A stretch of DNA of 64,000 bases from an uncultured bacterium (GCA_902761575.1 CACWKU010000001.1:22435-86434); one strand, 5' to 3'; positions 5,249 to 62,242 are shown, numbered from the stretch's first letter. A program made the numbers and translations. The notes: generated by a model from the sequence alone, not told the origin.

Positions 5249-8200
5249 CTAGCGCGTCAGGATCGCCCGGTAGAAATGGTGCTGGTCCGTGGCGGGCTGC
5301 CACGGGCCGGAAAGCGCGTCGGCGCCGAAGACCGTCACGGTCCCGTTGTAGGTCCCGGCGATGGCCGGAACCGTGCCCGGATCGATTCCCGCGAAGCGGA
5401 ACGCGGACTTCGCCTCGTCGAGGCCGGCCACGGCGCAGTTCAGAAGGTAGGCCGCCGAAAGCGCGTTGTCGGGGTTCCCGTCCGCGTCGAAGGACATCGC
5501 GTTCACGTCCGCGCCGCCGAACGGCACGCCGTTCGCGCGCGCCCACTTCGAGAGCCTGCGCAGCTCCGCCGTCGTGGTGCCGGCCTCCGCGAAGGCGCCG
5601 CCCGTGAGGCCGAGGTCCGCCGGCGAGGTGGCGTCCGTGATCGCCGTGTCGGGGTCCTCGGGCCAGTCCTGGAAGCCGCCGCCGCCGGCCTCGCCGAGGT
5701 CTCGGACCTGGAGGGCGGCGACGTAGCGCGCGGCGCCCGATCCGCCCATCTTGAACGTGACCACATGCGACGATGATTCCGCCGTGAACGAACCGTACAC
5801 CGTCGCGCCGGACGAGCCGTTCCCGTTCTGGATGCTGACGGAGGGCAGATCGCCGATCGTGATGTAGGCGTTTCCATACGAGTTGCGGGCCAGGATCTGC
5901 AGGAGATACGCATGGCCGGCCGTCAATCCCGAAAGCGTCAGATGGATCTCGCCCATGCCCGTATCCACGCCGAAGTCCCAGACCGTACCGAGGAGCGAGC
6001 TGCTCCCGGCGCTCACGTCCGCGCCGACGAAGGTCGGAGCAAAGGAAATGCTCGCCCCGGACAGGTTGGCGCCGGCCTGGAACGTCACGCCGCCCAGGGT
6101 CCGGTCCGTCGAGGCCCCGCGATAGGCGTAGAGAAGCGTGCCGTCCGTCCGGAGCATCGTTTCGTCCGACGCGCTCAGCGTCGCGACGGTCCAGCCCTCC
6201 ACGACGGAACCGCCGCCGCCCGACGTGTTGACGGCGAACGAGACGGACTTCGTGGCCGTCTTGCCCTTGTCGGTCGTGACCGTGACTGCGCAGGCGTAGG
6301 AGCCGTCGGCGAGGTTCTCGATGGAGAACGAGGCGGTGTCGTCGGTCTGGTTCGCGAGCGCCGCGACGGCGGTCCCGCCGTTCAGCGCGTAGGAGACGGA
6401 GTAGGACGACGCGGCCGCGCCCGCGTCGTCCGTTCCGAGCACGATGCCGGAGAGCGTGACCGTCGCGTTCGAGCCTGCAACATTGGCGGTCGCCGCGGCG
6501 ATCGACGGCGCGATGACCGGCGGCGGAGGCGTGCCGATCCGGAAGGAGACCGACTTCGCCGCCGAGGTCTTGCCCTTGTCGGTCGCGATCGTGACGACGC
6601 AAGTGTAGTCGCCGTCGGCGAGGTTCTCGATGGCGAACGACGCCGTCGCGCCGGTCTGGTTCTGCAGCGCCGTGACGGCGGTCCCGCCGTTCAGCGCGTA
6701 GGAGACGGAATAGGAAGTGGCGTCAGTCCCGGCATCGTCCGTCCCCATCACGATGCCGGAGAGAAAAAGCGACGCGGTGCTCCCGTCCGGAGTCGCGGTC
6801 ACGCTGCCGATCGACGGCTCGACGACCGTCGCCCCGCCGCCGCCGCCACCCCCGCCGCCGCCGTCGAGCTCGCGGACCTGGACGGCGTTGAACGGCATCT
6901 TGCCGCTACCGCCCTGATAGGTGATCGTCACGTCCTTCGTCGCGCCGACGGCCGTGAAGACGCCCGTGACGAGCGCGCCGTACTTCCCGCTCGCCTCGTT
7001 GTCGCCGTGGATGTGCACGGGGTCGCACCCGTTCGCGGAGACGGTCGTCGTGTTGTTCCAGTAGTTGTGCGCCAGGAACTGGACGAGGTAGATCTTCCCG
7101 CCTTCGAGATTCGAGAGCGTCAGCGTGACCGTGTGCGTGCCTGATCCGTCGCTGTCCCAGTACCAGCCGTTGCCGAGGGAGAGGCCGAGGTTGCCGCCGA
7201 CGCTTTCGTTCATGAAGTCGCCGGTGAAGCCGTCGATGTTGGGTGTGAAGGAGATCTTCGGAGGATTCTCCGAGGACTGGAGGTTCACGGACCGCTCGAA
7301 CGGGATTCCGTTGATGGTCCCGCCGTTGCAGACATAGCCGTAGACGAACGTGCCCTCCGTGCTGAATGCGGTGCCGCCCGCGTCCATGTATCCGGAGGTC
7401 CAGACATCGGAGACGGCGCTCGTGTTGACGTAGAAGACGACGGACTTCGTCTTCGCTCGCCCCTTGTCCGTCGTCATCGTGACCTCGCACGTGTGGTTGC
7501 CGTCCGCGAGGCCCTCGAGCGTGAACGAGCAGTCTTCCGACGTCTGGTCGGAGAGCGCCGTCACGGCCGCCGCGCCGTCGAGCTTGTAGGCGACGGAATA
7601 CTTCGTCGCGGGAACGGAGTTGGCGTCCGTGCCGAGGACGACGCCCGTGAGCGAGATCGTCGCGTTCGAACCGCTCGGCGCCGCGGCGAGCTCCGCGATG
7701 CGGGGATACTTCGGCCGGTTGTTCGTCGCGCGGTTCTGCGCGAACATCCAGACGAATCGGTGGTTCGGCGCGCCCGCCGTGACGTCGTCCTCCGTGGCGT
7801 AGCACGTCGTCCAGGCGTCGTGGCTGTTGTTCTCGAGCTTCTCGAAGATCACGTCCGATCCGAGCGCCCGGAGCGCCGTGACGATGCCCTCGGTCTGCTC
7901 GACGGGAATGGTCGGGTCTCCGCGGTTGTGCACGGCCAGGACCGGGACGTGCGCGATGTCGGCCGCGCAGGCGGGATCGCCGCCGCCGCAGCACGGCATC
8001 GCCGCGGCGAAGAAGTCGGGCCGGCGGCAGATCGCGTCCCAGGTCCCGTGCCCGCCCATCGAGAGGCCGGTGACGTAGATGCGGTCGGCGTCGACGTCCG
8101 CCATCGCGGCGTAGGCGTCGAGAAGGTCGAACACCGCCTGGAGCGCCGCGGACGGCTTGTCCTGGAACGTGCAGGTGGTCGAGTTCATGGAGAACTCCGC

Positions 8201-10795
8201 CCACTTGACGTCGTTCGGGCACTGGGGGACGAGAAGCTTGTAGCCGCTTGGGCCGCCCGCGCCGTCGAGGTAGCGCTGAATGTTCGACATCTCGTTGATC
8301 GTGAACGAATTGTCGACGCCGCACTGGCCGTATCCGTGAAGGAACACGACGACGGGAACCTTGCCGCCGTTCGGATCGGCCTTCGCCGCGACGCGGTAGG
8401 GGAGCTGAAGCTTGTTGGACGCGATGAAGGTCTTCTTGACGAATTCGCCGGTCAGGTCGTCGCCGCCGCCACCACCGCCGCCGCCGCCACCGCCGAGCTC
8501 GCGGAGCTGAATGGCCTTGACGAGGCATTTGCTGCCGGAGGTGGCGAACGTGACGGTCACGGTCTCCTGCGCGCCCGTCGCCTCGAACACGCGCGAAATG
8601 ACGGCGCCGCACTTGTAGTCGTTCTGCTTGGTGGCCTCGAACGGAACGAGATCGCCGGCGGAGAGCGTCGTCGAGGAATTGTTCCAGTGGTTGGCGGCGA
8701 GAATCTGGACCAGGTACTTCTTCCCGGCCGTGAGCCCCTGGAGGGTGAAGGCAAGGTCCAGCGAGGAGTCGCTCTTCTCCCACACCCAGCCGCCGTTGAA
8801 CACCGGGTTGTTCTCCGTCCAGCCCGCGCCGGCGTACGACGAGGGCGAGACCGTCGCCTGGTCCGAGCCCGGGAAGCCCGCGGAGAACGAGACGCCGTTG
8901 ACAGTGTGCCCGGTGAAGCCGCGCGCGAAGACCTGCGTGCCGTCGCTGCGGAACGCCGAGCCCGTCGCGTCCATCGGCGCGACCTTCCAGCCGACGGCGT
9001 CGGCCTGGGAATCGATCTGGAACTTGACGCGCTTCACGGCGGACATCACGACGCCGTCCGACGAAACCCAGACCGCGCAGGTGTGCCAGCCGTCGGCGAG
9101 GTCCGCGAGCTCGAACGAGGCCGAGGAGCCCGTCTCCGCCGCGGGAAGCGCCGTCTCGGCGCCCGCGTCGAGCTTGTAGGAGACCGCGAAGGACGCAGCG
9201 GCCGCGCCGCTCGCGTCCGTGCCCTTCGTCACGTTCGAAAGCGAGATCGTCGCCGACGTGCCGCTGACCTGCGCGGCGGCGGAGCCGATCGTCGGAAGCA
9301 CGACGGGCGAGGCGCCGGCCGTCGCCATCGCGCTGGCGATCGCGGGCGCGAGGATCTCCTCGTAGGCCTTCGTGGTCAGGTGCAGGAACTGGTCGGGATA
9401 GTCGCCGTTGCCCTGGAGGTACATCTCGCCGCGGTACGTCCCGTCGGCGTTCAGGAACTGGCTGCGGACGTCGACGAGGATCACGCGCTCTCCGTCCGCG
9501 AACGTCCGGATGATCTCGTTCGCCGCCTCGTTGTTGGCGTAGTGCGCGGCGCCCTTCGCGCCGTTCTGCGCGTTCGTGTAGCCGTAGGGGATGATCGGCA
9601 TCAGGAGGACCTTCGACTCGGGATGCTTCGCGAGGATGAGGTCGAGCACGGCGCGCACGCCCGCGGCGATGTCCGCGGGATCCTCGCTCGGATTCTTCCC
9701 GATCGTGTTGTTCGTGCCGATCAGCAGGTTGAAGAACTTCGTCGTGTAGCCGTCGATGCAGCCGCTCTCGAGGCGCCACAGCAGGTTCTCCACGAAGTCG
9801 CCGGTCCGGCCGAGGTTCAGGACGTTGGCGGCGAGTCCGTTCATGGACGAGGCGCTGTTCCCCTCCATCCACTTCTGAGTGAGGGAGTCGCCGAGGAGGA
9901 CGAGATCGAAGCTCCGGCCGTTTTCGCCGATGAGCTTCAGGTCGTCCTCGAACTTCCGCCAGAAGGCGTCCTGCAGATCGGCGTTGACCGCCGTCGGGAA
10001 CGTCGCGATGCGGTCGATCTCGGGACGCGCCGTCGCCACGAGGTCGGCGGGCATCGCGGAGCCGCCCGCCGCGGCGGCGACGTAGGGCGCGACCGCCTGG
10101 GCCCAGACCTCGTAGCCGGCCGCGTTCAGCGTGACGCGGTCGGCATTGAAGAGCGAGGTCTTCAGCGTGTGGTGGTCGTTCTCGAGGAAGAGGTCCGACA
10201 TGTCCACCCAGGCGCATCCCTTCTTCTGCGCGTACGCGCGAACGTCGATGTTCAGGCGGTCGTTGCGCGGACGCACGGGATCGGACTCGTCGAGCCCGCG
10301 CGGAAGCACCGCCTGCACGACGACCTTGGACGCGCCAACGCTTGCGACGAGGTCGTCGATGATTTCGCGCACGCCCAGGTACGTCTTCCCCTCCGGCTCC
10401 TCCTTCTCGGTGTAGATCGCGGCGTTGTTGCCGCCGACCATCAGGAAGACGACCTTGGGGCTGCCGAGCTCGCCGTTCCGGATGCGCCAGAGGACGTTCT
10501 CCGTGCAGTCGCCGGCGAAGCCGAGGTTGAACATTGTCCTGTCGCCGGTGAAGTAGGTCGCGAGCGCGCCCGCGCCCGTCGTCTCCCAGTCCTGCGTCAG
10601 CTCGTCGCCGAGGAAGACGATGTCCTTCCTGATGGAACTGTCGGCCACCGCCGCGACCTTCTCGGCGTGGCGCGCCGTCCACCAGGCGTCGAGCCGCGAG
10701 GCGGGGGTGTTCGCGCGGATGGACACCGCGGGTGCGTTCACAGCGGCCATCGCGAGGATCGCCGCGGACAGGAACGTGAAGGAGTGGGGTTTCAT
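5249..10795 (-). CDS. giant secreted multi-domain carbohydrate esterase: 2x SGNH hydrolase, one alpha/beta-hydrolase esterase (GLSMGGHGTWD), 5 Ig-like and 3 malectin-like domains, two Gly11 linkers, conserved ~130-aa C-terminal domain
   Basis: Real start MKPHSFTFLSAAILAMAAVNA (signal peptide) at 10793-10795, not the upstream TTG/ATG of the track ORF. Domain motifs are read directly from the translation. Confidence 0.8.
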   Translation of the reverse strand: MKPHSFTFLSAAILAMAAVNAPAVSIRANTPASRLDAWWTARHAEKVAAVADSSIRKDIVFLGDELTQDWETTGAGALATYFTGDRTMFNLGFAGDCTENVLWRIRNGELGSPKVVFLMVGGNNAAIYTEKEEPEGKTYLGVREIIDDLVASVGASKVVVQAVLPRGLDESDPVRPRNDRLNIDVRAYAQKKGCAWVDMSDLFLENDHHTLKTSLFNADRVTLNAAGYEVWAQAVAPYVAAAAGGSAMPADLVATARPEIDRIATFPTAVNADLQDAFWRKFEDDLKLIGENGRSFDLVLLGDSLTQKWMEGNSASSMNGLAANVLNLGRTGDFVENLLWRLESGCIDGYTTKFFNLLIGTNNTIGKNPSEDPADIAAGVRAVLDLILAKHPESKVLLMPIIPYGYTNAQNGAKGAAHYANNEAANEIIRTFADGERVILVDVRSQFLNADGTYRGEMYLQGNGDYPDQFLHLTTKAYEEILAPAIASAMATAGASPVVLPTIGSAAAQVSGTSATISLSNVTKGTDASGAAAASFAVSYKLDAGAETALPAAETGSSASFELADLADGWHTCAVWVSSDGVVMSAVKRVKFQIDSQADAVGWKVAPMDATGSAFRSDGTQVFARGFTGHTVNGVSFSAGFPGSDQATVSPSSYAGAGWTENNPVFNGGWVWEKSDSSLDLAFTLQGLTAGKKYLVQILAANHWNNSSTTLSAGDLVPFEATKQNDYKCGAVISRVFEATGAQETVTVTFATSGSKCLVKAIQLRELGGGGGGGGGGGDDLTGEFVKKTFIASNKLQLPYRVAAKADPNGGKVPVVVFLHGYGQCGVDNSFTINEMSNIQRYLDGAGGPSGYKLLVPQCPNDVKWAEFSMNSTTCTFQDKPSAALQAVFDLLDAYAAMADVDADRIYVTGLSMGGHGTWDAICRRPDFFAAAMPCCGGGDPACAADIAHVPVLAVHNRGDPTIPVEQTEGIVTALRALGSDVIFEKLENNSHDAWTTCYATEDDVTAGAPNHRFVWMFAQNRATNNRPKYPRIAELAAAPSGSNATISLTGVVLGTDANSVPATKYSVAYKLDGAAAVTALSDQTSEDCSFTLEGLADGNHTCEVTMTTDKGRAKTKSVVFYVNTSAVSDVWTSGYMDAGGTAFSTEGTFVYGYVCNGGTINGIPFERSVNLQSSENPPKISFTPNIDGFTGDFMNESVGGNLGLSLGNGWYWDSDGSGTHTVTLTLSNLEGGKIYLVQFLAHNYWNNTTTVSANGCDPVHIHGDNEASGKYGALVTGVFTAVGATKDVTITYQGGSGKMPFNAVQVRELDGGGGGGGGGGATVVEPSIGSVTATPDGSTASLFLSGIVMGTDDAGTDATSYSVSYALNGGTAVTALQNQTGATASFAIENLADGDYTCVVTIATDKGKTSAAKSVSFRIGTPPPPVIAPSIAAATANVAGSNATVTLSGIVLGTDDAGAAASSYSVSYALNGGTAVAALANQTDDTASFSIENLADGSYACAVTVTTDKGKTATKSVSFAVNTSGGGGSVVEGWTVATLSASDETMLRTDGTLLYAYRGASTDRTLGGVTFQAGANLSGASISFAPTFVGADVSAGSSSLLGTVWDFGVDTGMGEIHLTLSGLTAGHAYLLQILARNSYGNAYITIGDLPSVSIQNGNGSSGATVYGSFTAESSSHVVTFKMGGSGAARYVAALQVRDLGEAGGGGFQDWPEDPDTAITDATSPADLGLTGGAFAEAGTTTAELRRLSKWARANGVPFGGADVNAMSFDADGNPDNALSAAYLLNCAVAGLDEAKSAFRFAGIDPGTVPAIAGTYNGTVTVFGADALSGPWQPATDQHHFYRAILTR
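6831..6865 (-). repeat. GGC/GGT codon tract encoding a Gly11 linker in the giant esterase (second copy at 8458-8497)
   Basis: CCGCCGCCACCCCCGCCGCCGCC on the plus strand. Protein reads ...LRELGGGGGGGGGGGDDL... Confidence 0.8.
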
Positions 10796-10883
10796 CGTGA
10801 GCCTCGTGCTTTGGTTGCGTGCCCTTTCCGCACGCGTGCCGAATCCGGCCACGCGATGGCGATGGCTCCGTTCGACACCGCGA

Positions 10884-10942
10884 ATCATACCGCCGCGCCC
10901 GCCCGTTCGGCTAGGTAGATTCGCGGCGGATATCAGTAAAGA
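10884..10942 (-). promoter_or_regulatory. promoter of the giant esterase gene: -10 TATGAT plus upstream TTTACTGATA element
   Basis: rc ATCATA at 10884-10889. Element CAGTAAAGA at 10934-10942. Confidence 0.5.
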
Positions 10943-10963
10943 GACGGCTATACGCGCACTCGC

Positions 10964-33950: not shown

Positions 33951-34096
33951 GGCGGATCCGCGCCCAGGCGCAACGGAGACGACCATTATTTTACCACGAT
34001 TGCAATATTTTTTTTCTATTGTTGAAATATCTGCCGCGCGTCCAGTTGCTTTCCGAATCAAGGGCGAATCGGACGCGAAGGGCGCGAGGGCGCGTC

Positions 34097-43644: not shown

Positions 43645-46467
43645 CTATGGCGCCGGATGGATGCGGTAGAGGTGGCGGTAGTGCCCGGGATAGAAGTCGG
43701 CGAAGGAGCCGTCCGCGAGCGGGAGGGTGCGGTTCTCGTAGAGGACCTCGACGGTGCCGGCGCGCGGGGCGTCGGGCGGGAGCGTGAAGGTCACGGCCTC
43801 GAGCGGGTCGGCGTCGATGTTGCACGAGAAGATATACCAGTCGTCGCCGCACTTCGAGGTGCGGTGGCGGAGGAGGTCCGGCCCGACAGAGGCGCGCGCG
43901 GGCTCGCAGACCTCCTCGCTCAGGATCTTGTCCTTGAGCTCCTGTGCCTCGCGGTTGAAGTCGACCATCGCGCGCCAGTTCGCCTCGGAGCCGACCATGT
44001 TCACGAACCACGTGACGCCGGAGCAGCCGGCGCAGATCGCGCCCCAGCACTGCGCGGTCTGCTCGGCGTAGGAGGGCTGCTTGTAGTGGATCGAGTTCAT
44101 CCCCGCGAGGAAGAACCAGCACGGGACGCCCTCGCGCGCCTTGAGCATCTCGTCGACGTTGCGCAGGATCTGGTCGACGGTGCCGAACTCGGCGGCGGTG
44201 AGATAGGCGTCGAGCATGAAGACGTCGGTCCGCAGGTCGGCGAACCGGCTCGGGAAGCCGAACGTCGTGTTGTTCATCTGCACCGGCGTGTAGGGATAGT
44301 GCCTCTTCTCCTCGATCATGAAGTCGCGCACCTCGTCGCTCGGGCGGGAGAGCTCGGGCTCGTCGGTCGCGACGCGGCTCACGATGTTGTCGAAGTCCTT
44401 CAGCCGCTCGCGCGTCTCGGCGCGCGTCTCGGTGGCGCCGTCGCGGTCGCCCGTCCAGAGGATGAAGTCCATCCCGATCTTCCGCCCGTACTCGAGCATC
44501 GCGATCGTCCGGTCGGTGCCCGCCTTGTCGGAGAAGGTGCAGACGTGCGCGTAGCGGAAGCCGCGCGCCTTCATCGCGTCGAGCATCGCGAAGCGGCCGT
44601 CCTCGCGGGGCGGGTTCTCGCGGACGACGAGGCAGTTGGCCGCCATCAGGACCTTCTCCCCTCCCCTCTCGAGGCAGCGCGCGAAGCGGTTGATCTGCGT
44701 GGCGCCCCTCCAGTACGGGAGCTTCACGACCTCGACGGGCCAGTCGCGGCCGTGCGCGCGGACCGTGACGGCGTTCGTGCCGCAGGGCATGCCGCGGATG
44801 TCGAGCGCGACCTCCTCGAGGCGGCCCTCCTCGTCCCAGATGCGCCAGCGCGCCTCGGGCTCGCGCATGTAGAAGTCGAGGCGGCCGAGGACGACCGGCT
44901 CCGGCGCGGCCTTCTTCGCGGCGGCGGCGCGCGCCCACTTCGCGTGGACCTCGGGCGGCAGGTCGAGCGAGGCCCAGAAGGCGTCGTCGCGGAAGTCGCC
45001 GTTCTTGGAGTAGGAGGTCCCGGGGCACTGCGGGTTCTCCCCGTGGCGGTCGTTGCGGCCGAGGTTGAAGAGCCAGTGCGCGTCCATGCCGCGCTCCGCG
45101 AGGTCCGCGAAGGGGACGGTGACGAGGTACTCGACCGCGCCGCCCGCGTCGCGCGCCTGCACGGTCCAGGAGCCGTCCCAGGTCTTGTCCTCGCCGTAGG
45201 CGTCGGCGCGGCAGCCGTTCGGCGCGCAGAAGAGGTGGTAGTTCTTCTTCTCCTCCGTCGGGCGCAGCAGCACCTCCACGGAGTCGCGGATGCAGATCTC
45301 GGTCGCGTCCTTGAAGTAGGGCGCGTGGCCGATCTCCGCGGGATCCTCGCCGAAGTTGCGGAAGCCGATGTAGAGGCGGTCGTCGTCGCACGCGAGGAAG
45401 GCCTGCGTGCGCTGGACCGGCTCCTCGCGCTTCACGTAGAACCGGCCGGCGTCGGCCGCGTGAGCCTCCCACGAGGAAAGATCGACGGTGGGCCGCACGC
45501 CCGCGGGGAGCTTTTTCACCCGAACGGTCGGCGGGCGCTCCGCCTTCTCCTGCCGCCCGAAGCGCGTGGCGTCGAGGTCGCTCGGACGCCACTGCGTCGC
45601 CGCGTCGCCGAACTCGAGCTGGAGGTCGTCGAGCCAGATGCAGCCGTCGTAGCGCGACGGATTTCGCACCTCGAACTGGACGGGGCTGAAGAGGCCTGGC
45701 GCCGGCATGTTCGTCGTCGCGAGCTCGTAGCGGGCCCACTCGGTCGAGAGCGCGAACGTGCGCCGCTCGGGGCCGAGCGACACGGTGATCTCCATCCCGG
45801 GCCTCTCCGCCTTCATCCAGCCCGAGAACACCCCGTGGGCACCCTTGCGCGTCGCCGTGCGCCACGGGTAGAACGACACGTTCGCGCAGTACGGCCGCAC
45901 CGCGAGGCGGAACGACTGCCTGCCCGAGTGCTTCTCCGCGGTGTCCACCGCGAAGCCCTTCGTCCACTCCTCGTACTCCGCGCCGCCGTAGTGGCGCCAG
46001 TCGAACGCGCCGCGGTTGCAGAAATAGGGCGGGACGCCGTCCTCGTCGAACTCGAAGCCGGAGTTCACGATGAGGTTCGGCGAGGCGTCGGCGTCCTCCG
46101 GGAGCGAGACCACGACGTCGTCGATCAGGCGCGGGGCCGCGCCCCGCGCCTCGAAGACGACGGCCGGGCTCTTCGCCCGCTCGCGCTCCTCGCGGCGAGG
46201 CGCGCGCTCCTCGCCCTCGACCCACTCCAGGACGTATTTCTCGGGCACGGCGCCGCGCCACGTCGCCTTCGCGCCGGGCGAGACGACGAGCCGGCCGCCC
46301 TCGCTGCGGATCTCGCCGTCCGCGCGCCAGTGCTCGGCGAGCGTCTGGCTCGTGGCGAAGTCGTCGGAGAAGACGGAGATCCCGGCCGCCGGAGCGGACG
46401 GCGCGGCCGCGGCCGCGAGCAGGACGAGGGCCGCCGGGAGGCGGGCGTTCCGGAAAGTCGCTTTCAT
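43645..46467 (-). CDS. 940-aa secreted putative glycoside hydrolase of unrecognised family with CBM4/9-like domain; paralog of 36598..39927
   Basis: Track ORF with a signal peptide. Shared C-terminal catalytic-like domain and central NSGFEFD.DGVP..CNR...VDTAE.HSG.QS.RL module. Confidence 0.55.
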   Translation of the reverse strand: MKATFRNARLPAALVLLAAAAAPSAPAAGISVFSDDFATSQTLAEHWRADGEIRSEGGRLVVSPGAKATWRGAVPEKYVLEWVEGEERAPRREERERAKSPAVVFEARGAAPRLIDDVVVSLPEDADASPNLIVNSGFEFDEDGVPPYFCNRGAFDWRHYGGAEYEEWTKGFAVDTAEKHSGRQSFRLAVRPYCANVSFYPWRTATRKGAHGVFSGWMKAERPGMEITVSLGPERRTFALSTEWARYELATTNMPAPGLFSPVQFEVRNPSRYDGCIWLDDLQLEFGDAATQWRPSDLDATRFGRQEKAERPPTVRVKKLPAGVRPTVDLSSWEAHAADAGRFYVKREEPVQRTQAFLACDDDRLYIGFRNFGEDPAEIGHAPYFKDATEICIRDSVEVLLRPTEEKKNYHLFCAPNGCRADAYGEDKTWDGSWTVQARDAGGAVEYLVTVPFADLAERGMDAHWLFNLGRNDRHGENPQCPGTSYSKNGDFRDDAFWASLDLPPEVHAKWARAAAAKKAAPEPVVLGRLDFYMREPEARWRIWDEEGRLEEVALDIRGMPCGTNAVTVRAHGRDWPVEVVKLPYWRGATQINRFARCLERGGEKVLMAANCLVVRENPPREDGRFAMLDAMKARGFRYAHVCTFSDKAGTDRTIAMLEYGRKIGMDFILWTGDRDGATETRAETRERLKDFDNIVSRVATDEPELSRPSDEVRDFMIEEKRHYPYTPVQMNNTTFGFPSRFADLRTDVFMLDAYLTAAEFGTVDQILRNVDEMLKAREGVPCWFFLAGMNSIHYKQPSYAEQTAQCWGAICAGCSGVTWFVNMVGSEANWRAMVDFNREAQELKDKILSEEVCEPARASVGPDLLRHRTSKCGDDWYIFSCNIDADPLEAVTFTLPPDAPRAGTVEVLYENRTLPLADGSFADFYPGHYRHLYRIHPAP

Positions 46468-48841: not shown

Positions 48842-48943
48842 GCAAGAAATTGTACCATCCGCTCCGTGCCCTCCCCGTGCCCCTCGCTCGCCCCGCGCCG
48901 GGTCGGCGGTGGTCGTAGCTCGCATCGCTCGGTCCCGAAAACC

Positions 48944-49025
48944 AACAAACTCCCGAGTGTTTATTCAACAAACTCCCGAACGATTCTTCAACAAACTCCC
49001 GGACGAAATTTCAACAAACTCCCGA
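48944..49025 (+). repeat. four direct repeats of CAACAAACTCCCGA (period 22-23 bp) immediately upstream of the ATPase promoter
   Basis: Copies at 48944, 48967, 48989 and 49012. The third copy ends in G. Confidence 0.85.
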
Positions 49026-49030
49026 ACAAC

Positions 49031-49059
49031 TTGACATTTCCTTAGATTTCTCATAGAAT
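49031..49059 (+). promoter_or_regulatory. near-consensus sigma70 promoter TTGACA-N17-TAGAAT for the COG1373 ATPase gene; no Shine-Dalgarno site
   Basis: TTGACA at 49031-49036, 17-nt spacer, TAGAAT at 49054-49059, ATG at 49068. Confidence 0.6.
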
Positions 49060-49067
49060 TCGCCACC

Positions 49068-50348
49068 ATGAAACGGTACGCGAAGAGAGTGGCGGATAGT
49101 TTGCTCGCCCGAAAGCTCCAAGGGCTAGGCGCCGTTCTCGTCCAAGGGGCCAAATGGTGCGGCAAGACAACGACCTGCGAACAGGTCGCCAAGAGCGTTC
49201 TGTACATGGGCGACCCGAAGAAGCGCAAGGAGAATCTGGAGATGGCGTCGATCGACGTCACATCGCTTCTGGAGGGTGCGAAGCCAAGGCTCATCGACGA
49301 ATGGCAGGTCGCACCCGTGTTTTGGGACGCGATCCGCCACGCGGTGGACCACGCCGACGGTCCGGGGCAGTTCATCCTGACCGGCAGCGTGGTTCCCCCG
49401 AAGACCGAGGAGAAGACCCATAGCGGGACGGGGCGGATCGCCCGTCTCACCATGCGCCCGATGACGCTCTGGGAAAGCGGTGAGTCGAGCGGAACGATCT
49501 CCCTCGCCGAACTGTTTTCGGGAACGGCCCCGGATAGCGCCCGCGCCATGGGGCGCGAACTGGAGGAGATCGCGTTCCTCGCCTGCCGGGGCGGATGGCC
49601 CCAGGCGGTCCTTCGGAAGGGCGACGTCGCCCTCGACCTCGCCTTCGACTACGTGGACTCGGTCGCGGACGAGGACATCTCGCGCGTGGACGATGTGAGG
49701 CGCGACCCCGCGCGCGCCCGACGCCTTCTGCGCTCCTACGCGCGGCTCCAGGGCTCTCAGGCGAACCTCAAGGCCATCAAGCTTGACATGGCGGGCGGCG
49801 GGATCGACGCCCCGGACGAGGACACCGTCGCCTCCTACCGCGGCGCCCTCGAAAAGCTCTTCGTCGTGGAAGACGTGCCGGCCTGGTGTCCGAACCTTCG
49901 GTGCCGGACCCCTATCCGCACGAGCGGCACGCGCTGCTTCGTCGACCCGTCCATCGCTGCGGCGTCCCTCGGTCTCGGCCCGGGCGGCCTGATGTCCGAC
50001 CTGACGACGTTCGGCTTTTTCTTCGAAACGCTGGCCGTCCGCGACCTTCGCGTCTACGCAGAAGCCCTGTCCGGGAGCGTCGCCCACTACCGTGACGCCT
50101 CCGGGCTCGAATGCGACGCCGTCATCCATCTCCGCAATGGCGCCTACGGTCTCGTCGAGGTCAAGCTCGGCGGCGACCGACTCGTTGCCGAAGGCGTGGA
50201 AACCCTCCTGGCCTTCTCAGGCAAGATCGACACCGACGCAATGAAGGCGCCGGCGTTCCGTATGGTCCTTACGGCCGTCGGCGACTATGCCTACCGTCGT
50301 CCGGCCGATGGCGTCTACGTCTGTCCCCTCTCCGCTCTCTGTCCCTGA
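49068..50348 (+). CDS. AAA+ ATPase of the COG1373 family (DUF4143 C-terminal domain)
   Basis: Track ORF. Walker A GAKWCGKTT. C-terminal ..YRDASGLECDAVI..GLVEVKLG block. GC is lower than the surrounding DNA. Confidence 0.75.
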   Translation: MKRYAKRVADSLLARKLQGLGAVLVQGAKWCGKTTTCEQVAKSVLYMGDPKKRKENLEMASIDVTSLLEGAKPRLIDEWQVAPVFWDAIRHAVDHADGPGQFILTGSVVPPKTEEKTHSGTGRIARLTMRPMTLWESGESSGTISLAELFSGTAPDSARAMGRELEEIAFLACRGGWPQAVLRKGDVALDLAFDYVDSVADEDISRVDDVRRDPARARRLLRSYARLQGSQANLKAIKLDMAGGGIDAPDEDTVASYRGALEKLFVVEDVPAWCPNLRCRTPIRTSGTRCFVDPSIAAASLGLGPGGLMSDLTTFGFFFETLAVRDLRVYAEALSGSVAHYRDASGLECDAVIHLRNGAYGLVEVKLGGDRLVAEGVETLLAFSGKIDTDAMKAPAFRMVLTAVGDYAYRRPADGVYVCPLSALCP

Positions 50349-53231: not shown

Positions 53232-54626
53232 TCAGGCGAAGTGCGAGAGCGGCGCCTTGCCGATGGCGCGGACGTGGAACCCGAGCTCGAAGAGCTCGCG
53301 GCGGTCGAGGCAGTTGCGGCCGTCGAAGACGAAGGCCGGCTTGCGCATCCTCGCGAAGATCCGCGCCCAGTCGAGCTCCGGGAACTGGCGCCAGTCCGTG
53401 AGGACCGCGACGGCGTCCGCGCCCTCGACGGCCGTGTAGGGATCCTCCTCGAACGAGACGAGGTCGCCGTGGCGCGCGAGCTCCTTCCGCGCGTTCGGGA
53501 GCGCGTAGGGGTCGCACACGACGAGCTGCGCGCGCTCCTCGGCGAGCAGGTCCGCGACGACCTTCGCGGGCGTCTCGCGCGTGTCGGACGTGTCCGCCTT
53601 GAACGCGTAGCCGAGGATCGCGATGCGCTTGCCCGCGACGGTGTTGAACATCGCGTGGACCATCTCGGCGACGAAGCGCGTCTCCTGGTGCTCGTTCATC
53701 TCGACGACGGAGTTCCAGTAGGCCGCGGCCTCCGTCAGGCCCCGCTGCTCGCAGAGGTAGACGAGGTTGAGGATGTCCTTCTTGAAGCACGAGCCGCCGA
53801 AGCCCACGCCGGCGCGGAGGAACTTCGGCCCGATGCGCGAGTCGCGGCCGATGGCGCGCGCGACCTCGTCGACGTCGGCGCCCGTCTTCTCGCACAGCTC
53901 CGTGAGCGCGTTCACGCTCGAGATGCGCTGGGCGAGGAAGGCGTTGGCGGCGAGCTTCGAGAGCTCGGAGGACCAGACGTTGGTGGTGAGGATGCGGTCG
54001 CGCGGCACCCACTCGGCGTAGATGTCGACGACCGCCTCGCGCGCGGCGGCGCCGGTCGGGGTCTCGTCGGAGCCGACGAGCACGCGGTCGGGCTTCTCGA
54101 GGTCGGCGATCGCGGTGCCCTCGGCGAGGAACTCGGGGTTGGAGAGCACCTCGAAGCGGTGCGCGCCGCCGGACTCGAGCACGCGCTTCATCGCCGTCGC
54201 GGTGCGGACGGGGAGCGTGCTCTTCTCGACCACGATCAGGTCGTGCGTCGCGCACTCGCGGATCTCGTGCGCGGTCTTCTCCCAGTACTGCAGGTCGGCC
54301 GCGCGCCCGGCGCCCTGGCCGAAGGTCTTGGTGGGCGTGTTGACCGCGACGAACACGACGTCCGCCTCCGCGATCGCGGCGGGGATGTCGGTCGAGAAGA
54401 AGAGGTTGCGCCCGAGCGTCTCCGCGACGACCTCCTTGAGGCCGGGCTCGTAGAACGGGAGCGCGTCGGACTGCCACGCGGCGATGCGCTTCGCGTCGAT
54501 GTCGACGACCGTGACCTTGCGGTCCGGGCACTTTTTGGCGATCATCGCCATCGTGGGGCCGCCGACGTAGCCGGCGCCGATGCACAGGATGTTCGTGAGC
54601 TTTTTCGGGGTCTTGACGGTCTTCAT
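53232..54626 (-). CDS. ugd: UDP-glucose 6-dehydrogenase, long eukaryote-type form
   Basis: Start MKTVKTPKKLTNILCIGAGYVGG. Motifs GGSCFKKD, NPEFLAEGTAI. Long identical stretches to animal UGDH as I recall it. Confidence 0.85.
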   Translation of the reverse strand: MKTVKTPKKLTNILCIGAGYVGGPTMAMIAKKCPDRKVTVVDIDAKRIAAWQSDALPFYEPGLKEVVAETLGRNLFFSTDIPAAIAEADVVFVAVNTPTKTFGQGAGRAADLQYWEKTAHEIRECATHDLIVVEKSTLPVRTATAMKRVLESGGAHRFEVLSNPEFLAEGTAIADLEKPDRVLVGSDETPTGAAAREAVVDIYAEWVPRDRILTTNVWSSELSKLAANAFLAQRISSVNALTELCEKTGADVDEVARAIGRDSRIGPKFLRAGVGFGGSCFKKDILNLVYLCEQRGLTEAAAYWNSVVEMNEHQETRFVAEMVHAMFNTVAGKRIAILGYAFKADTSDTRETPAKVVADLLAEERAQLVVCDPYALPNARKELARHGDLVSFEEDPYTAVEGADAVAVLTDWRQFPELDWARIFARMRKPAFVFDGRNCLDRRELFELGFHVRAIGKAPLSHFA

Positions 54627-54706
54627 GGTCTGGATGGTCTGGATGGTCGGGATGGTCGGGATGGTCAGAGGGTCAGAGGGTCGGGATGGTCCTGATGGTC
54701 GGGAGG
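54627..54706 (-). repeat. nine tandem 8/9-nt GACCATCCN units filling the whole ugd 5-prime leader up to the ATG
   Basis: Sense strand reads GACCTCCC GACCATCAG GACCATCCC GACCCTCT GACCCTCT GACCATCCC GACCATCCC GACCATCCA GACCATCCA GACC-ATG. Confidence 0.9.
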
Positions 54707-55648
54707 TCACCGCTCCACGCGCATCGGGTTCTCGAGGAAGTCCCTGTAGGCGAGCTTGAGGCCGTCCTCGAGGGAGGTCTTCGGCCTCCAGCCGAGGGCG
54801 ATGGAGCGGGAGAGGTCGAGCAGCTTGCGCGGCGTGCCGTTCGGGCGGGTGCGGTCCCAGCGGATCTCGCCCTCGTAGCCGACGGTGCGCGCGACGAGCT
54901 CGGAGAGCGCCTTGATCGTGATCTCGCGCCCGGAGCCGGCGTTGATCGGGTCGTCGCCGTGGTAGCGCTCCATCACGAGGAGGCAGAGGTCGGCCAGGTC
55001 GTCCACGTAGAGGAACTCGCGAAGCGGCGAGCCGTCGCCCCAGCAGGTCACGAAGGGCGCCTTCGCCTCCTTCGCCTCGTGGAAGCGGCGGATCAGCGCG
55101 GGCAGGACGTGGCTGTGCTCCGGGTGGTAGTTGTCGTTCGGGCCGTAGAGGTTCGTCGGCATCACGGAGACGTAGTCCGCGCCGTGCTGGCGGTTGAGGT
55201 AGGCGCAGTACTTGAGGCCCGCGATCTTCGCGAGCGCGTAGCCCTCGTTCGTCGGCTCGAGCGCGCTCGTGAGCAGGCAGGACTCCGGCATCGGCTGCGG
55301 CGCGAACTTCGGGTAGATGCACGACGAACCGAGGAAGAGGAGCTTCCGGCAGCCGTTCCTCCACGCGGCGTGGATCGCGTTCATCTCCAGCATCGCGTTG
55401 TCGTAGAGGAAGTCCGCCGGCGCGGCGGCGTTCGCCGCGATGCCGCCGACCTTCGACGCGGCGAGGAAGACGTAGTCCGGCCTCTCCTCCGCGAAGAAGG
55501 CGTCCGTGGCGCGCTGGTCGCGCAGGTCGAGCTCCGCGTGCGAGCGGACGACGATGTTCTCGAAGCCGCGGCGCTTCAGCGCGCGGATGATGGCGGAGCC
55601 GACCATCCCGCGATGGCCTGCGACGTAGATCTTGGCGTTTGGTTCCAT
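54707..55648 (-). CDS. fcl: GDP-L-fucose synthase (GDP-4-keto-6-deoxymannose 3,5-epimerase/4-reductase)
   Basis: Track ORF. N-terminus [15 protein letters not shown]. Motifs YxxxK and LYGPNDNY. Confidence 0.8.
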
Positions 55649-55687
55649 GGTCTGGATGGTCCGATGGTCCGGATGGTCCGATGGTCA
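55649..55687 (-). repeat. four tandem GACCATC(G/CN) units forming the fcl 5-prime leader
   Basis: Sense strand reads GACCATCG GACCATCCG GACCATCG GACCATCCA GACC-ATG. Confidence 0.9.
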
Positions 55688-55804
55688 GAAGTGGCGCGCG
55701 GCATCATGAATTCGACATGGCGCGTTGCGATGGGCGCGGAGTCTAGCAGAGGGGTCGGCGGGAACGGAAGGGACGGAGTTGACCGTTTCTAGCACGATTT
55801 TGAC

Positions 55805-55839: not shown

Positions 55840-56691
55840 ATGAAACGTGCGCAGAACGAGGAGTCCGCCCCCCGGCGGCGGCTCTGCACACCGGACGGTT
55901 TTGCACGGTCGTCTCTCCTCCACGTGCAGGAGATCGGCGAGCTTGCTCCGTCACGTCCGATGACGAGCCGGCGCGCGGGATTCCCGTCGCTTCTCTTCCT
56001 GCTCGCCGAGTGGGGCGAAGGCGTGGTCCGCGAGGGCGCCGAGGAGCGTCCGCTGCGCGCCGGGGAGTGCGCGCTGCTGGACTGCCGCCGCGGGTGCGGA
56101 CACGCGACGGGCGAGCCGCCGTGGCGGCTCAAGTGGATCCACTTCGACGGACCCGGCGCGGCGGCGTTCGGCGAGAGATGGCGTGAGCGCGCCGGCGGAC
56201 CGGTCCTGCGCGCGACGTCGCCGGAGCGCTACCGGCGCGCGTGGGAGGAGGTCTGGGCCGCGGTCTCGTCGGAGGACGACCCGATCCGCGACCTCCGCGC
56301 GAACGAGGGGCTCGCCTCGCTCTGCACGCTGCTGATGCAGGACGCTCTCGGGACGGAGCCCGACCGGCGCGCGGAGCGCCTCGCGGCGGTGCGCTCCTGG
56401 ATCGATGCGCACTGCGCGGAGGAGGTCGCGCTCGACCGTCTCGCGGCGGTGGCGCACCTCAACAAGTACACGCTCGTGCGCGAGTTCCGCGCGCGGTACG
56501 GCGTGCCGCCGATGCGCGCCCTGGCGCAGGCTCGCGTCTCGAGGGCCAAGCGCCTGCTCCGCTTCACGGACGACACCGTCGAGACGATCGGCGCGGCGGT
56601 CGGAGTCCCCGACCCGAACTACTTCGCGCGCCTCTTCCGCCGCGTCGAGGGCCTCTCGCCGCGCGCCTTCCGCGAACGCTGGCGGGAATGA
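55840..56691 (+). CDS. AraC-family transcriptional regulator (cupin sensor + HTH)
   Basis: Track ORF. C-terminal HTH ...YTLVREFRARYGVPPMRALAQARVSRAKRLL. Confidence 0.75.
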   Translation: MKRAQNEESAPRRRLCTPDGFARSSLLHVQEIGELAPSRPMTSRRAGFPSLLFLLAEWGEGVVREGAEERPLRAGECALLDCRRGCGHATGEPPWRLKWIHFDGPGAAAFGERWRERAGGPVLRATSPERYRRAWEEVWAAVSSEDDPIRDLRANEGLASLCTLLMQDALGTEPDRRAERLAAVRSWIDAHCAEEVALDRLAAVAHLNKYTLVREFRARYGVPPMRALAQARVSRAKRLLRFTDDTVETIGAAVGVPDPNYFARLFRRVEGLSPRAFRERWRE

Positions 56692-59790: not shown

Positions 59791-61496
59791 GGTGTGGTGT
59801 ACCGGGAACTTGATGAGCGGGAAGCGGAAACATCCGGCGTGGCGCCGTCGGCGCGGAGGCGCAGGGCGAGCCCGCCCTCCGGGGGCTCCTCGACGATCGC
59901 CTCGACGCGACCGAGCCCGGCCGCGGCGTGGAAGGCGAGGACGGCCGCGTCGAGAATCCCGGAGACCTCGGGGTCGAGGCGCAGCCCGAACTTCGCCGCA
60001 AAGCCCGCGAGCGCGTTCGCCGTGCGGACCTGCGCCGCGAGGCGCGGCATGTCCGCGCGCAGCGCGAGGAGCGCGGCGGGGTGCGCACCCCGCCACGCCG
60101 CCACGACCTGGCCGACGGTCTCGCCGCTCCCCTCCCCCGCCCCGCCGGTCAGCGCGTTCCACGCGCCCCGGCCGAGGCCGAGGTCGAGCCGACCCGCGGT
60201 AGCGTCCTCGGAGACGAACGCGCAGTCCGCCTCCGGCGTCTGGCCGAGCAGCTCGAACTTCTTCGCGCGGACGAGCCGCGTGGCGGGGTCCGGCGCCGAG
60301 TCGCGAAGGCGCAGGTCCACGTCCGCCTTGAGCGCCTCGAACCACGGCGGCCACCACTGCGCGAGCGGCGCCGCGGGATCGGCGGGAAGCGAAAGCGCGA
60401 GCGACGGCACCTCGAGGATCGCCAGGTGCGTCGCGTTCGGACGGTCCGCCGCCCACGCGACCGCCGTGCCTTCGCCGAAGGGCGGCAGGCCCGAGTCGGC
60501 CGGGATCCACCCCTTCGCGACCGGCGCGGCGACGAGGAGGAACGCCGCGTCCGCCGGCGCACGCGCCGCGGCGCCCGCGAGGGGCGCGGCGGCGCCGAGC
60601 GACGGGTCGGGGAGGCTGGACCGTATCCCGGAGCCGACCATGGCGTCGAGCTCGATGCCCGGGCGCCTGAACGACGCGAGGTCGAGCGTGAAGGGATTGC
60701 AGTCGAACGCGTAGGGACCGAGGTCGTAGGGCTGCACCCAGATGCGGTGGCGCTTGCGGATCTCGCGCCAGGGCTCCGGTTCGCGGTCGGCCTGGACCGG
60801 GCCGCCTGCCTTGAAGCATCCGGCGAGACGCTGCCAGGAGTCCGTCTTCCCCGCGACGCGCGCCGCGAGCTCGGCTACGCGGTCCGGGTCCTGCGCGAGG
60901 ACGGCGACGAGGACGCCGTCGACGATATCGAGGCCGAGGACGATGCCATTGTCGCGCAGCTCGCGGGCGTGCGGGAACTCCATGTAGCGCGTGCCCTTCG
61001 CGGTGGTGCGCAGCGGCCCGAGGCCGGGCACCCACCTGATGCGCCAGAGCAGCTCCAGCGCGCGCGCCTTCCAGCCGACGTAGCTCGCGCCCGCGAGGTA
61101 GCCGCCGAGCCCGGCGCATTCGCCCTCCTCCGGGACGACGCCGACGACCGAGTTCTCGCCCGTGAGCCAGAAGAGCGTCCAGAAGACGCCGGCGTTGTCG
61201 TCGATCGCGTCCTCCGGATCGCCGCCGAGCGCGCGCAGCGCGTACTGGAACGACGGGTTGCGCAGGAGTGCGCGGTCCTCCATCGCGAGGTTGCGCACGT
61301 AGGCCGCGGCGGCGGTCCGCTCCGGCAGCGCATAGAAGAGCTCCGCCCGGTCCATCGGATACCAGAAGAACCAGAGCGCGACGGCGGCGATCGCGCAGCG
61401 ACGCAGCGCCTTGCGGCGCCGCCGCGCCCAGGCGCGCGGCCCCGTGGCGGGGTCCGCCCCCGCGGCGAGAAATTCGTCGTCGTCCATGTCGCCCAT
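59787..61496 (-). CDS. hypothetical single-pass membrane protein
   Basis: Track ORF. One hydrophobic helix AIAAVALWFFWYP. ATGA overlap with the GH3 start. Carries an in-frame copy of the 24-nt palindrome (WRGAHPA). Confidence 0.45.
   Translation of the reverse strand: MGDMDDDEFLAAGADPATGPRAWARRRRKALRRCAIAAVALWFFWYPMDRAELFYALPERTAAAAYVRNLAMEDRALLRNPSFQYALRALGGDPEDAIDDNAGVFWTLFWLTGENSVVGVVPEEGECAGLGGYLAGASYVGWKARALELLWRIRWVPGLGPLRTTAKGTRYMEFPHARELRDNGIVLGLDIVDGVLVAVLAQDPDRVAELAARVAGKTDSWQRLAGCFKAGGPVQADREPEPWREIRKRHRIWVQPYDLGPYAFDCNPFTLDLASFRRPGIELDAMVGSGIRSSLPDPSLGAAAPLAGAAARAPADAAFLLVAAPVAKGWIPADSGLPPFGEGTAVAWAADRPNATHLAILEVPSLALSLPADPAAPLAQWWPPWFEALKADVDLRLRDSAPDPATRLVRAKKFELLGQTPEADCAFVSEDATAGRLDLGLGRGAWNALTGGAGEGSGETVGQVVAAWRGAHPAALLALRADMPRLAAQVRTANALAGFAAKFGLRLDPEVSGILDAAVLAFHAAAGLGRVEAIVEEPPEGGLALRLRADGATPDVSASRSSSSRYTTP
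60073..60096. repeat. near-perfect copy (GCGGCGGGGTGCGCACCCCGCCAC) of the 24-nt palindrome inside the CDS 59787..61496 (encodes AWRGAHPA)
   Basis: One mismatch at position 2. The same WRGAHPA peptide as at 16839-16862. Confidence 0.8.
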
Positions 61497-61528
61497 TCTA
61501 GCAGAACGGGCGCCGGACTTCCACCCGC

Positions 61529-61587: not shown

Positions 61588-62205
61588 ATGCGCCTCGTCC
61601 TCGCCTCCCGCAACTCCAACAAGCTCGTCGAGCTCCGCGCCCTCTGCGGCCTGCCGGCGGACTTCCTCGTCTCCGCCGCCGAATGCCCCGGCGCGCCCGA
61701 CCCCGAGGAGGATGCCGACACGTTCGTCGGCAACGCGCTCATCAAGGCGCGCGCGCTGCGCGACTTCTCGGGCGAGTGGGCGCTCGCCGACGACTCCGGG
61801 CTCGAGGTCGACGCCCTCGGCGGCGCGCCCGGCGTCCATTCCGCGCGCTACGCCGGCGTCCACGGCGAGGACGGCGCGAACAACGCGCTCCTCCTGCGCA
61901 ACCTCGACGCGCTCGGCCCGAAGGCCCCGCGCACATGCCACTTCTCCTGCGCGCTCGCCCTCGTCGCGCCCGACGGCCGCGAGTTCGTCGCGCTCGGCCA
62001 GTGCCCCGGCACGCTCCTGCGCGAGGGCCGCGGCACCAACGGCTTCGGCTACGACCCCCTCTTCCTCCCCGACGGCCGGGACAAGACCTTCGCCGAGCTT
62101 CCGCGCGAGGTGAAGTGCACCTTCTCCCACCGCGCCCGCGCCGCCGAACGCATGCGCCCCCTCCTCCGCTCCCTCTTCCCGACCCTCCCCCCTCCCCAAC
62201 CATAG
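61588..62205 (+). CDS. rdgB: non-canonical purine NTP pyrophosphatase (Ham1/RdgB family)
   Basis: Track ORF. N-terminus MRLVLASRNSNKLVEL. Motif GFGYDPLF. Confidence 0.7.
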   Translation: MRLVLASRNSNKLVELRALCGLPADFLVSAAECPGAPDPEEDADTFVGNALIKARALRDFSGEWALADDSGLEVDALGGAPGVHSARYAGVHGEDGANNALLLRNLDALGPKAPRTCHFSCALALVAPDGREFVALGQCPGTLLREGRGTNGFGYDPLFLPDGRDKTFAELPREVKCTFSHRARAAERMRPLLRSLFPTLPPPQP

Positions 62206-62242
62206 ACCATCGGACCATCCCGACCATCGGACCATCCCGACC
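62205..62242 (+). repeat. four tandem GACCATC(G/CN) units forming the galE 5-prime leader (the entire rdgB-galE spacer)
   Basis: Reads GACCATCG GACCATCCC GACCATCG GACCATCCC GACC-ATG. Near-identical to the fcl leader. Confidence 0.9.

Follow-up and report, generated by a model that had tools for sequence, protein, structure and literature searches.

Tandem GACCATC repeats fill the leader of ugd and abut the initiation codons of numerous unrelated genes across a high-GC bacterial lineage

How does translation begin on a gene when the only sequence in front of its initiation codon is a short tandem repeat? This question is raised by ugd, a gene that lies in a 64-kb stretch of DNA from an uncultured bacterium, which is referred to here, at its full length, as the window. 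On the minus strand, the spacer between fcl and ugd consists of nine tandem units of 8 or 9 nt and a terminal GACC, after which the ATG of ugd (54626-54624) follows directly. Read in the sense direction, these units are GACCTCCC, GACCATCAG, GACCATCCC, GACCCTCT, GACCCTCT, GACCATCCC, GACCATCCC, GACCATCCA, and GACCATCCA, followed by GACC; their core is GACCATC in six cases, GACCCTC in two, and GACCTCC in one. The 80-nt spacer (54706..54627) is wholly filled by them, and the first unit overlaps the stop codon of fcl (TGA, 54709-54707). TRF also recognizes the array, which it calls from 54609 to 54708 with a period of 9 and 11.4 copies. This span runs past the ATG, since the first six codons of ugd, ATGAAGACC GTCAAGACC (MKTVKT), keep the 9-nt periodicity and prolong the repeat in frame. 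The original prediction had described nine head-to-tail units that fill the spacer up to GACC-ATG, and both the sequence and TRF confirm it on this point. Moreover, the window contains 14 copies of GACCATCC, where 2.3 are expected, and none of 100 shuffles reaches 14. The array in the ugd spacer is a real, non-random feature, and it is found across one lineage.

A fusion of Fcl and Ugd through readthrough or frameshifting was considered and rejected, as the distance from the stop codon to the ATG is 83 nt, is out of frame, and differs between strains. A search of the whole window with Rfam at gathering thresholds gave no covariance-model matches, and a scan for promoter consensus sequences found none inside the ugd array. 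On the antisense (plus) strand, positions 54627-54708 read as (GGATGGTCN)n, a regular G2-N2-G2-N3 pattern in which two-tetrad G-quadruplexes could conceivably form. The coordinates of the arrays and of the genes around them are given in Table 1.

Table 1. Repeat arrays of the window, the genes that they separate or lead, and an associated promoter-like box
Feature	Coordinates	Strand	Evidence or remark
fcl-ugd intercistronic array, GACC(A/C/T)(T/C)C(N)1-2 x9 + GACC	54627..54708	-	Sequence, TRF, folding, composition
ugd start codon and first six codons, repeat continued in frame	54609..54626	-	Parallels in L170, L094, and L181
ugd, UDP-glucose/nucleotide-sugar dehydrogenase, 464 aa	53232..54626	-	Pfam; NCBIfam TIGR03026, 330.7 bits, above cutoff
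fcl, GDP-L-fucose synthase, 313 aa	54707..55648	-	Pfam, NCBIfam
fcl 5′-leader array, GACCATCG GACCATCCG GACCATCG GACCATCCA GACC	55649..55686	-	Abuts fcl ATG (55648); kept in L068 and L142
TGCTAGACT, extended -10-like box before the fcl leader	55740..55748	-	Conserved in L068, L196, L115, and L220
rdgB/Ham1-family gene upstream of galE	61588..62205	+	Own leader C-rich (70% C), without SD
rdgB-galE intercistronic array, GACCATCG GACCATCCC GACCATCG GACCATCCC GACC	62205..62242	+	Abuts galE ATG (62243)
galE, UDP-glucose 4-epimerase, 340 aa	62243..63265	+	TIGR01179, 432.5 bits, above cutoff

The ugd array is not the only one of its type in the window. Two further GACCATC arrays, overlooked in the original prediction, are found before fcl and galE, in the same register as at ugd, and all three arrays terminate in GACC-ATG. 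The fcl and galE arrays are 38 nt long each and have a 17-nt higher-order period according to TRF; the opening G of the galE array is the final base of the TAG stop codon of rdgB. Upstream of the fcl leader lies the TGCTAGACT box, and in one relative (L123) the ATG of fcl follows this box by 9 nt, with the array being absent. In the window, TGCTAGNNT boxes occur three times (0.97 expected), at 14515-14523 (+), 55740-55748 (-), and 61495-61503 (-), in every case just upstream of some gene start; the ATG comes 9 nt after the box both at 14533 and in the fcl gene of L123. This spacing suggests that leaderless or near-leaderless mRNAs may be common in the source organism.

Other repeats and compositional islands were observed in the window as well. 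At 48943-49079 (+), a G-poor 23-nt unit (CAACAAACTCCCGAACGATTATT) is repeated 3.7 times in tandem directly upstream of a promoter-like site, TTGACA...CATAGAAT, and downstream of this site, an AAA_14/DUF4143 ATPase gene starts at 49068 with a leader of only 8 nt (tcgccacc-ATG). At 6258-6828 (-), a 309-nt unit is repeated 1.8 times (80% match) within the huge secreted-protein ORF at 5249..10963, and this repeat is probably a duplicated domain. Finally, an AT-rich, G-poor island (for instance, attattttaccacgattgcaatattttttttctattgttgaaatatc) is found at 33969-34039, in surroundings with 69% GC.

If ribosomes are recruited to ugd in the canonical way, a Shine-Dalgarno (SD) sequence would be expected before its ATG. 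As the original prediction stated, there is none, the energy of the duplex with the anti-SD being -0.5 kcal/mol. Duplex energies at array-led starts range from -0.5 to -3.4 kcal/mol, whereas SD-bearing genes in the window give -6 to -9.5 kcal/mol, with individual values of -7.3 and -9.5. Some secreted-protein genes do carry an SD, again as predicted, in the form of GAGG or AAGGAG (2975, 10795, 12616, and 26947). Nonetheless, an SD-like 4-mer is present at only 9 of the 24 curated starts of the window. In the immediate start context, ACC occupies positions -3 to -1 at 8 of the 24 curated starts, or at 5 of 21 when only non-array genes are counted, against about 2% expected. Since ACC is also preferred at starts that have no array, the GACCATC unit copies the usual start context of the organism, which fits well with the previous suggestion that each unit resembles a start context in which AUC replaces AUG. 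Arrays of 9-nt units, in addition, put an A at positions -3, -9, and -12.

The last full unit of the array ends 5-6 nt before the AUG, that is, at an SD-like spacing, and it could thus be proposed that the unit pairs with rRNA as an alternative SD-like element. We lend next to no credence to this proposal. The best match of the unit to E. coli 16S rRNA, a molecule that may differ from that of the host, with a clade 16S present in none of 256 loci, covers 6 of 8 positions and is equalled by 300 of 300 shuffled 8-mers, and the duplex of the unit with the anti-SD tail has an energy of only -0.3 to -0.5 kcal/mol. Furthermore, a canonical CCUCCUUU anti-SD is present in cultured Kiritimatiellae (PMC10783764), and other genes of the window use GAGG-type SD sites.

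A more distinctive property of the arrays is the lack of structure of their transcripts. G makes up 12% and C 51% of the ugd leader, whose MFE is -6.1 kcal/mol per 80 nt. For the window as a whole, 3,196 segments of 80 nt have a mean of -30.2 kcal/mol (sd 6.9) and 34.5% G; only 0.06% of them are as unstructured as the ugd leader, and the galE and fcl leaders fall within the least-structured 0.2-1%. This property is observed only in the sense direction. The 113-nt sense segment has an energy of -8.1 kcal/mol, and 196 of its 200 dinucleotide shuffles fold more stably (z = +1.81); its antisense reaches -40.2 kcal/mol. Sense array RNA contains 11-14% G, and G-poor sense-strand segments coincide with gene starts throughout the window. 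The arrays also lack ATG, GTG, and TTG, which rules out upstream ORFs in the ugd array, and the GACCATC forward unit has stop codons in none of the frames.

Tracts of this composition are also characteristic of Rho-loading (rut) sites, whose descriptors are a C>G skew, low structure, and regularly spaced YC dimers over about 60-80 nt (PMC6144790). The ugd array matches these descriptors, and arrays begin right at upstream stop codons. A tract of this kind might become exposed when ribosomes fail to engage and cause polarity or attenuation, which would couple the transcription of the downstream gene to its translation. Such a role is very unlikely, however, given that the fcl and galE arrays and most of those in the clade are too short for it, and that it leaves both the register with the ATG and the continuation into the coding sequence unexplained.

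Whether the array belongs to ugd or to a broader family was addressed with two scans. In the first, genomes were searched with a three-unit pattern, using one genome per species, and at least 119 loci were obtained. Most of these are unrelated, consisting of in-frame 9-nt coding repeats or of intergenic octamer microsatellites away from starts. The arrays that abut an ATG belong to a coherent group of rumen and gut MAGs with ~70% GC, labelled Kiritimatiellae, 'uncultured Verrucomicrobia', or RUG; one contig (L068) is ~98% identical to the window. In the second scan, metagenomes were searched for arrays ending in GACCATG, which gave at least 120 loci, and in at least 35 high-GC contigs among the matches listed the array leads a real gene. 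In related contigs, these genes encode Ugd, Fcl, RmlA, other epimerases, a sugar nucleotidyltransferase, LpxA, IlvD, and 3-isopropylmalate dehydrogenase (LeuB). Others encode Cmk, an IspF-like protein, MetY (O-acetylhomoserine sulfhydrylase), GH3, GH130-like or mannoside-phosphorylase-like proteins, oxidoreductases, and many proteins with signal peptides. Thus, the database search proposed in the original prediction, besides the null result with Rfam, reveals the array at the starts of unrelated genes in related high-GC contigs, and the downstream genes share no functional pattern. The description of the array as the leader of ugd stands, but its specificity to ugd does not, as fcl, galE, and at least 35 other genes are also led by arrays; that first description is correct but too narrow.

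The three array-led genes of the window all encode nucleotide-sugar enzymes, and it is thus conceivable that the arrays act at the DNA level, as a phase switch or an operator for nucleotide-sugar or surface-polysaccharide genes. The number of units is polymorphic, the fcl and galE arrays have their 17-nt higher-order period, and a divergently encoded AraC-family protein (55840-56691) is adjacent and would be a candidate factor. Yet clade-wide, arrays lead housekeeping and catabolic genes of all kinds. They occupy spacers between cistrons or follow -10-like boxes, rather than separating promoter elements; their 8-9-bp period is off helical phasing; and changes in unit number shift neither a reading frame nor the spacing between -35 and -10 elements. 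Consequently, we consider a DNA-level role extremely unlikely. Because the metagenome scan gave unrelated downstream genes, a nucleotide-sugar regulon is rejected, and the nucleotide-sugar theme of the window is a sampling coincidence or, at most, a mild enrichment. The original prediction had also proposed that the array binds some regulator of surface-polysaccharide precursor synthesis; this finds no support either, as LpxA, IlvD, LeuB, Cmk, MetY, IspF, GH3, and secreted proteins are also led by arrays, and strains with an identical GalE have a wholly different leader.

Within the clade, the placement of the arrays is strikingly regular. In 291 kb of clade DNA, GACCATC-type repeats are the commonest short-period repeats found with TRF. 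Considering only unselected arrays, that is, those outside the search anchors, 7 of the 10 that are interpretable end in (G/A)ACC-ATG in register; no antisense array was observed, nor any array located in a 3′ spacer. Arrays start either at the stop codon of the preceding gene or soon after a -10-like box (TAGACT, TAGAAT, or TATACT); they are, therefore, intercistronic spacers or 5′ UTRs and hence transcribed. Most are 20-50 nt long, with a maximum of about 14 units. In some cases, the repeat is carried in frame beyond the ATG, as in MKTIKTIKT... (L170), MRTIL... (L094), and MGPSDHPT... (L181), which explains the MKTVKT start of ugd. The start codon is, thus, itself part of a repeat unit, with ATG instead of ATC.

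There are arrays that depart from this arrangement. Those of L020 and L158 stop 20-40 nt short of the ATG. In L086 (minus strand, ~3507-3592), an 84-nt in-frame GACCATC insertion in a GH2-like coding region encodes (DHP)8TIQT, flanked by ...LHTVELV and KFGIRTVEA; the same GH2-like gene is also led by an array, and the insertion fits none of the models discussed here. At L065 (321-393), two divergent arrays are placed back to back, one of them made of GACCATGC units, each with an ATG, and this array may be a freshly duplicated start context. The clade contains other families of 7-9-nt intergenic repeats, such as GCTGAAT/CATTCAG (7 nt), TCAACCAT (8 nt), TCGTCAC (7 nt), and CGAGAGA (7 nt), found at L068 1679-1763, L142 2834-2934, L130 2947-2997, and L184 1425-1451, and the lineage seems unusually rich in repeats of this size.

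An equivalent of the arrays in other phyla was sought among the matches and rejected. The GAC(C/T)ATCN octamers of Anaerolineae, Gemmatimonadales, and proteobacteria form microsatellites in intergenic DNA without touching an ATG, although they sometimes precede a normal SD and ATG. Five such loci occur in one Gemmatimonadales MAG (L001, L014, L017, L055, and L118), and those of Anaerolineae are L004-L009, L031, L034, L064, and L080. Pure 9-mer matches in Vibrio and others are coding repeats. Two scans of viral collections gave one putative mobile element with a GC of 0.70 and one probable host fragment, which is too weak a basis for phage mimicry. The former (L319/L322, IMG/VR contig 3300031994_004278) carries, close to a DnaB-like gene, two arrays of the leader type that precede small ORFs, and the latter (L325) is a 'viral' contig with a LeuB-like host gene and a 10-unit array.

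If placement is regular, the arrays themselves are not stable. A comparison of unit number between strains, as had been proposed, reveals that the count varies. The Ugd protein of the window, preceded by 9 units, is identical in L123, with 5 units, and in L127, with about 5, and one contig has an assembly gap at this position. In L142, where Ugd is 99.4% identical, there are 6 units, and in L068 only the last 3 are retained, the distal part having been replaced by TGCTGAA and TCAACCAT repeats. Likewise, an identical GalE is preceded by three types of leader, namely the GACCATC array, six copies of TCGTCAC, and a C-rich non-repeat spacer, all of which lack an SD and are similarly unstructured. 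The MFEs of the replacement leaders are -0.9 (TCGTCAC x6), -1.8 (L068), and -14.1 (C-rich non-repeat); their sequences are unrelated and G-poor. Orthologues also differ by whole units, namely by +17 nt between L115 and L220 and by -9 nt between L184 and L188. Nevertheless, an array with the same core is kept at the same start in pairs of orthologues with 67%, 80%, 83%, and 91% protein identity, even though the flanking leader sequence cannot be aligned between them. Thus, no single array is stable or irreplaceable, but the family lasts, and so does its placement. Larger differences between strains are also observed nearby, as positions 43659-46352 of the window correspond to 4212-6902 of L068, where they adjoin ugd, and the strains differ by a ~7-kb rearrangement or deletion downstream of this gene.

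The length polymorphism agrees with the proposal that the tract undergoes slipped-strand mispairing, but not with its being a phase switch, as neither the frame nor the ATG-proximal context is affected and most of the genes are housekeeping or metabolic. Perhaps, then, the arrays are neutral or selfish microsatellites, functionless and tolerated in a leader only because a tract that is G-poor, unstructured, and devoid of start codons is harmless there, which arose as slippage copies of the start context and whose ATGs were purged to ATC. In line with this, unit numbers and whole arrays turn over among strains with identical proteins, several other families of 7-8-nt repeats occupy the same spacers, and some arrays (L065 and L169) have ATG-bearing units, as expected of fresh duplications. 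Assembly gaps and contig ends also fall at array positions (L122, L103, and L127), and GAC(C/T)ATCN octamers are plain intergenic microsatellites in many phyla. However, neutrality does not readily account for a core that is kept at orthologous starts despite unalignable flanks, nor for the strictly sense, start-proximal placement, the sense strand being less structured than its own shuffles, or an in-frame copy far from any start (L086). All in all, we consider it somewhat unlikely that the arrays are neutral, although the idea is a serious contender.

The persistence of the core could also reflect recognition by a lineage-specific RNA-binding protein that controls the translation of many mRNAs. 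This might be an S1-, Csp-, KH-, or CsrA-like protein, or a ring or multimer that reads the 8-9-nt periodicity of the RNA, (GACCAUCC)n. Both in the three arrays of the window and across species, the 7-nt GACCATC core is conserved and the spacer of 1-2 nt varies; the unit is reused at many genes, and a similar proposal has been made for the TAACTGA repeats described below (PMC4679880). On the other hand, the conservation of the core stems partly from the design of the search and from slippage copying, strains exchange the array for unrelated repeats with no change in the protein, the downstream genes have no common function, and no candidate protein was identified. We therefore view a dedicated protein site as decidedly unlikely.

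The reading that we favor is that the array is an unstructured tract at the start of ugd on which ribosomes would land or stand by independently of an SD, and which replication slippage would have made and resized; we would give it roughly an even chance. Its groundwork is directly supported by observation: the anatomy of the array, its register with the ATG, the absence of an SD, the lack of structure in the sense strand only, the occurrence at many unrelated genes, the hypervariability among strains, and the persistence among species. The array is compatible with SD-independent initiation because ugd must be translated and only the array lies upstream of its ATG. That it promotes initiation, and the route by which it would do so, is what we infer. 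Copies of the start context, (G)ACC-AUN, with AUC replacing AUG, would yield a G-poor, C/A-rich transcript that is nearly unfoldable and free of AUG, GUG, and UUG. This open tract might be bound, with no SD pairing, by a 30S subunit, probably through S1 and in a standby fashion, or else by a 70S particle, which could be a ribosome fresh from termination at the stop codon where the array begins. The ribosome would then travel along the tract and start at the sole AUG, in its favored ACC context. Slippage would make the arrays and keep resizing them, while the two or three units nearest to the ATG would stay put.

This is the most parsimonious reading, and it agrees with experiments on two other systems: unstructured 5′ tails serve as ribosome standby sites (PMC5934652), and in SD-poor Bacteroidetes, low structure and an A at -3 and at -12/-13 favor initiation (PMC6847099). 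Among the possible roles listed in the original prediction, the translational standby or enhancer leader is the one that fits best, as the arrays are sense-oriented, in register with the ATG, free of start codons, and almost free of structure. Nevertheless, several observations stand against it. The array is dispensable at the level of strains, as galE can have other leaders and the fcl of L123 has none; hence, any benefit would come from the composition rather than from the unit, or would be small. The mutational duplication of a start context is by itself enough to yield both the register and the orientation, and neither the in-frame copy of L086 nor the distant arrays of L020 and L158 are predicted by a leader role. 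Finally, the fact that different species share the 7-nt core hints at a sequence-specific recognition that an accessible tract would not need.

Indeed, GACC-AUC might itself be a sequence-specific recruitment signal, in which tandem pseudo-starts, each a near-cognate AUC in the favored ACC context, transiently hold ribosomes loaded with initiator tRNA, or else a dedicated RNA-binding factor, and pass them on to the one AUG in phase. We consider this unlikely, albeit worth keeping in view. If it were true, the lineage would have its own alternative to SD pairing, the number of units would set the level of expression, and the start codon could shift along the array through changes between ATC and ATG.

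Turning again to the arrays as accessible landing tracts, if they do promote initiation, they would provide a high-GC bacterium with a natural start signal that is modular, tunable, and independent of an SD, and in which the start is chosen as the sole AUG in a structure-free tract of near-cognate decoys. SD-less recruitment of ribosomes and start selection would then become testable with simple reporters. There are practical consequences, too. Gene finders trained on SD sequences will misplace starts in this lineage (the fcl gene of L123, for example, is called 14 codons short), and the arrays break metagenome assemblies, producing N gaps and contig ends. They are, in addition, ready hypervariable markers of strains, and relevant to the heterologous expression of carbohydrate-active enzymes from the rumen.

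With regard to known systems, a text search of the literature for the GACCATC unit returned matches of the primer type only, and no description of the motif was found. This agrees with the original prediction, in which the repeat was not recognized as a described leader motif, but a very similar phenomenon has been published, which is discussed below. Other systems share some traits with the arrays. The omega leader of TMV has ACAAUUAC 8-nt direct repeats and a CAA tract, and it resembles the arrays in being an unstructured, SD-independent leader with direct repeats of 8 nt. The standby sites of MS2 and tisB (PMC5934652) and the A-3 context (PMC6847099) also have in common with them a single-stranded, G-poor tract before the AUG, the absence of SD pairing, and the importance of accessibility and of the -3 context. 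In contrast to the GACCATC arrays, which are known from sequence alone, the standby, omega, and A-3 systems have been tested experimentally; none of them, however, has a start codon phased inside a hypervariable tandem array at many chromosomal genes.

In Haemophilus influenzae, the (ATCTTTC)n repeat of hmw is likewise a transcribed 7-nt repeat, located between promoter and ATG, whose copy number changes by slippage (PMC12721329). That repeat, though, is one arm of a long hairpin that is processed by RNase III, and it controls an adhesin, a contingency gene (PMC12721329), whereas the GACCATC arrays are free of structure, abut the ATG, and lead housekeeping genes; hmw is, thus, a more distant analogue. 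As for rut sites (PMC6144790), they are also C>G-skewed, unstructured RNAs of ~80 nt that are rich in YC dimers, but they have no fixed unit, no register with a start codon, and no tandem-repeat build.

The closest precedent is found in the direct repeats of the TAACTGA heptamer, which are present in marine Beggiatoaceae, some Cyanobacteria, and Bacteroidetes (MacGregor 2015, PMC4679880). There are about 170 sets of them per genome, mostly directed toward a start, with the most numerous class stopping 1 nt before the start codon. An SD is present in only about 10% of the spacers with these repeats, several repeats overlap the upstream stop codon, and a few lie within ORFs; no functional pattern was found downstream, the predictions give no structure for the RNA, and how the repeats work is unexplained (PMC4679880). 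The GACCATC arrays differ from them in several respects. Their unit, GACCATC followed by 1-2 variable nt, measures 8/9 nt and not a constant 7, and is stop-free in all forward frames; their lineage is a high-GC one within the Planctomycetes-Verrucomicrobia-Chlamydiae (PVC) group; the start codon forms part of the repeat, in register, and the repeat may enter the coding sequence in frame; and they are longer (up to about 14 units), with a documented turnover among strains. Taken together, the two cases suggest that start-proximal tandem repeats recur in bacterial genomes and are still in need of an explanation. Both consist of a short, lineage-restricted unit that is repeated head to tail at many loci, in the forward orientation, close to starts that are poor in SD sequences and irrespective of the function of the gene. 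The GACCATC arrays are, in this sense, the same kind of feature as the TAACTGA repeats, of a different family.
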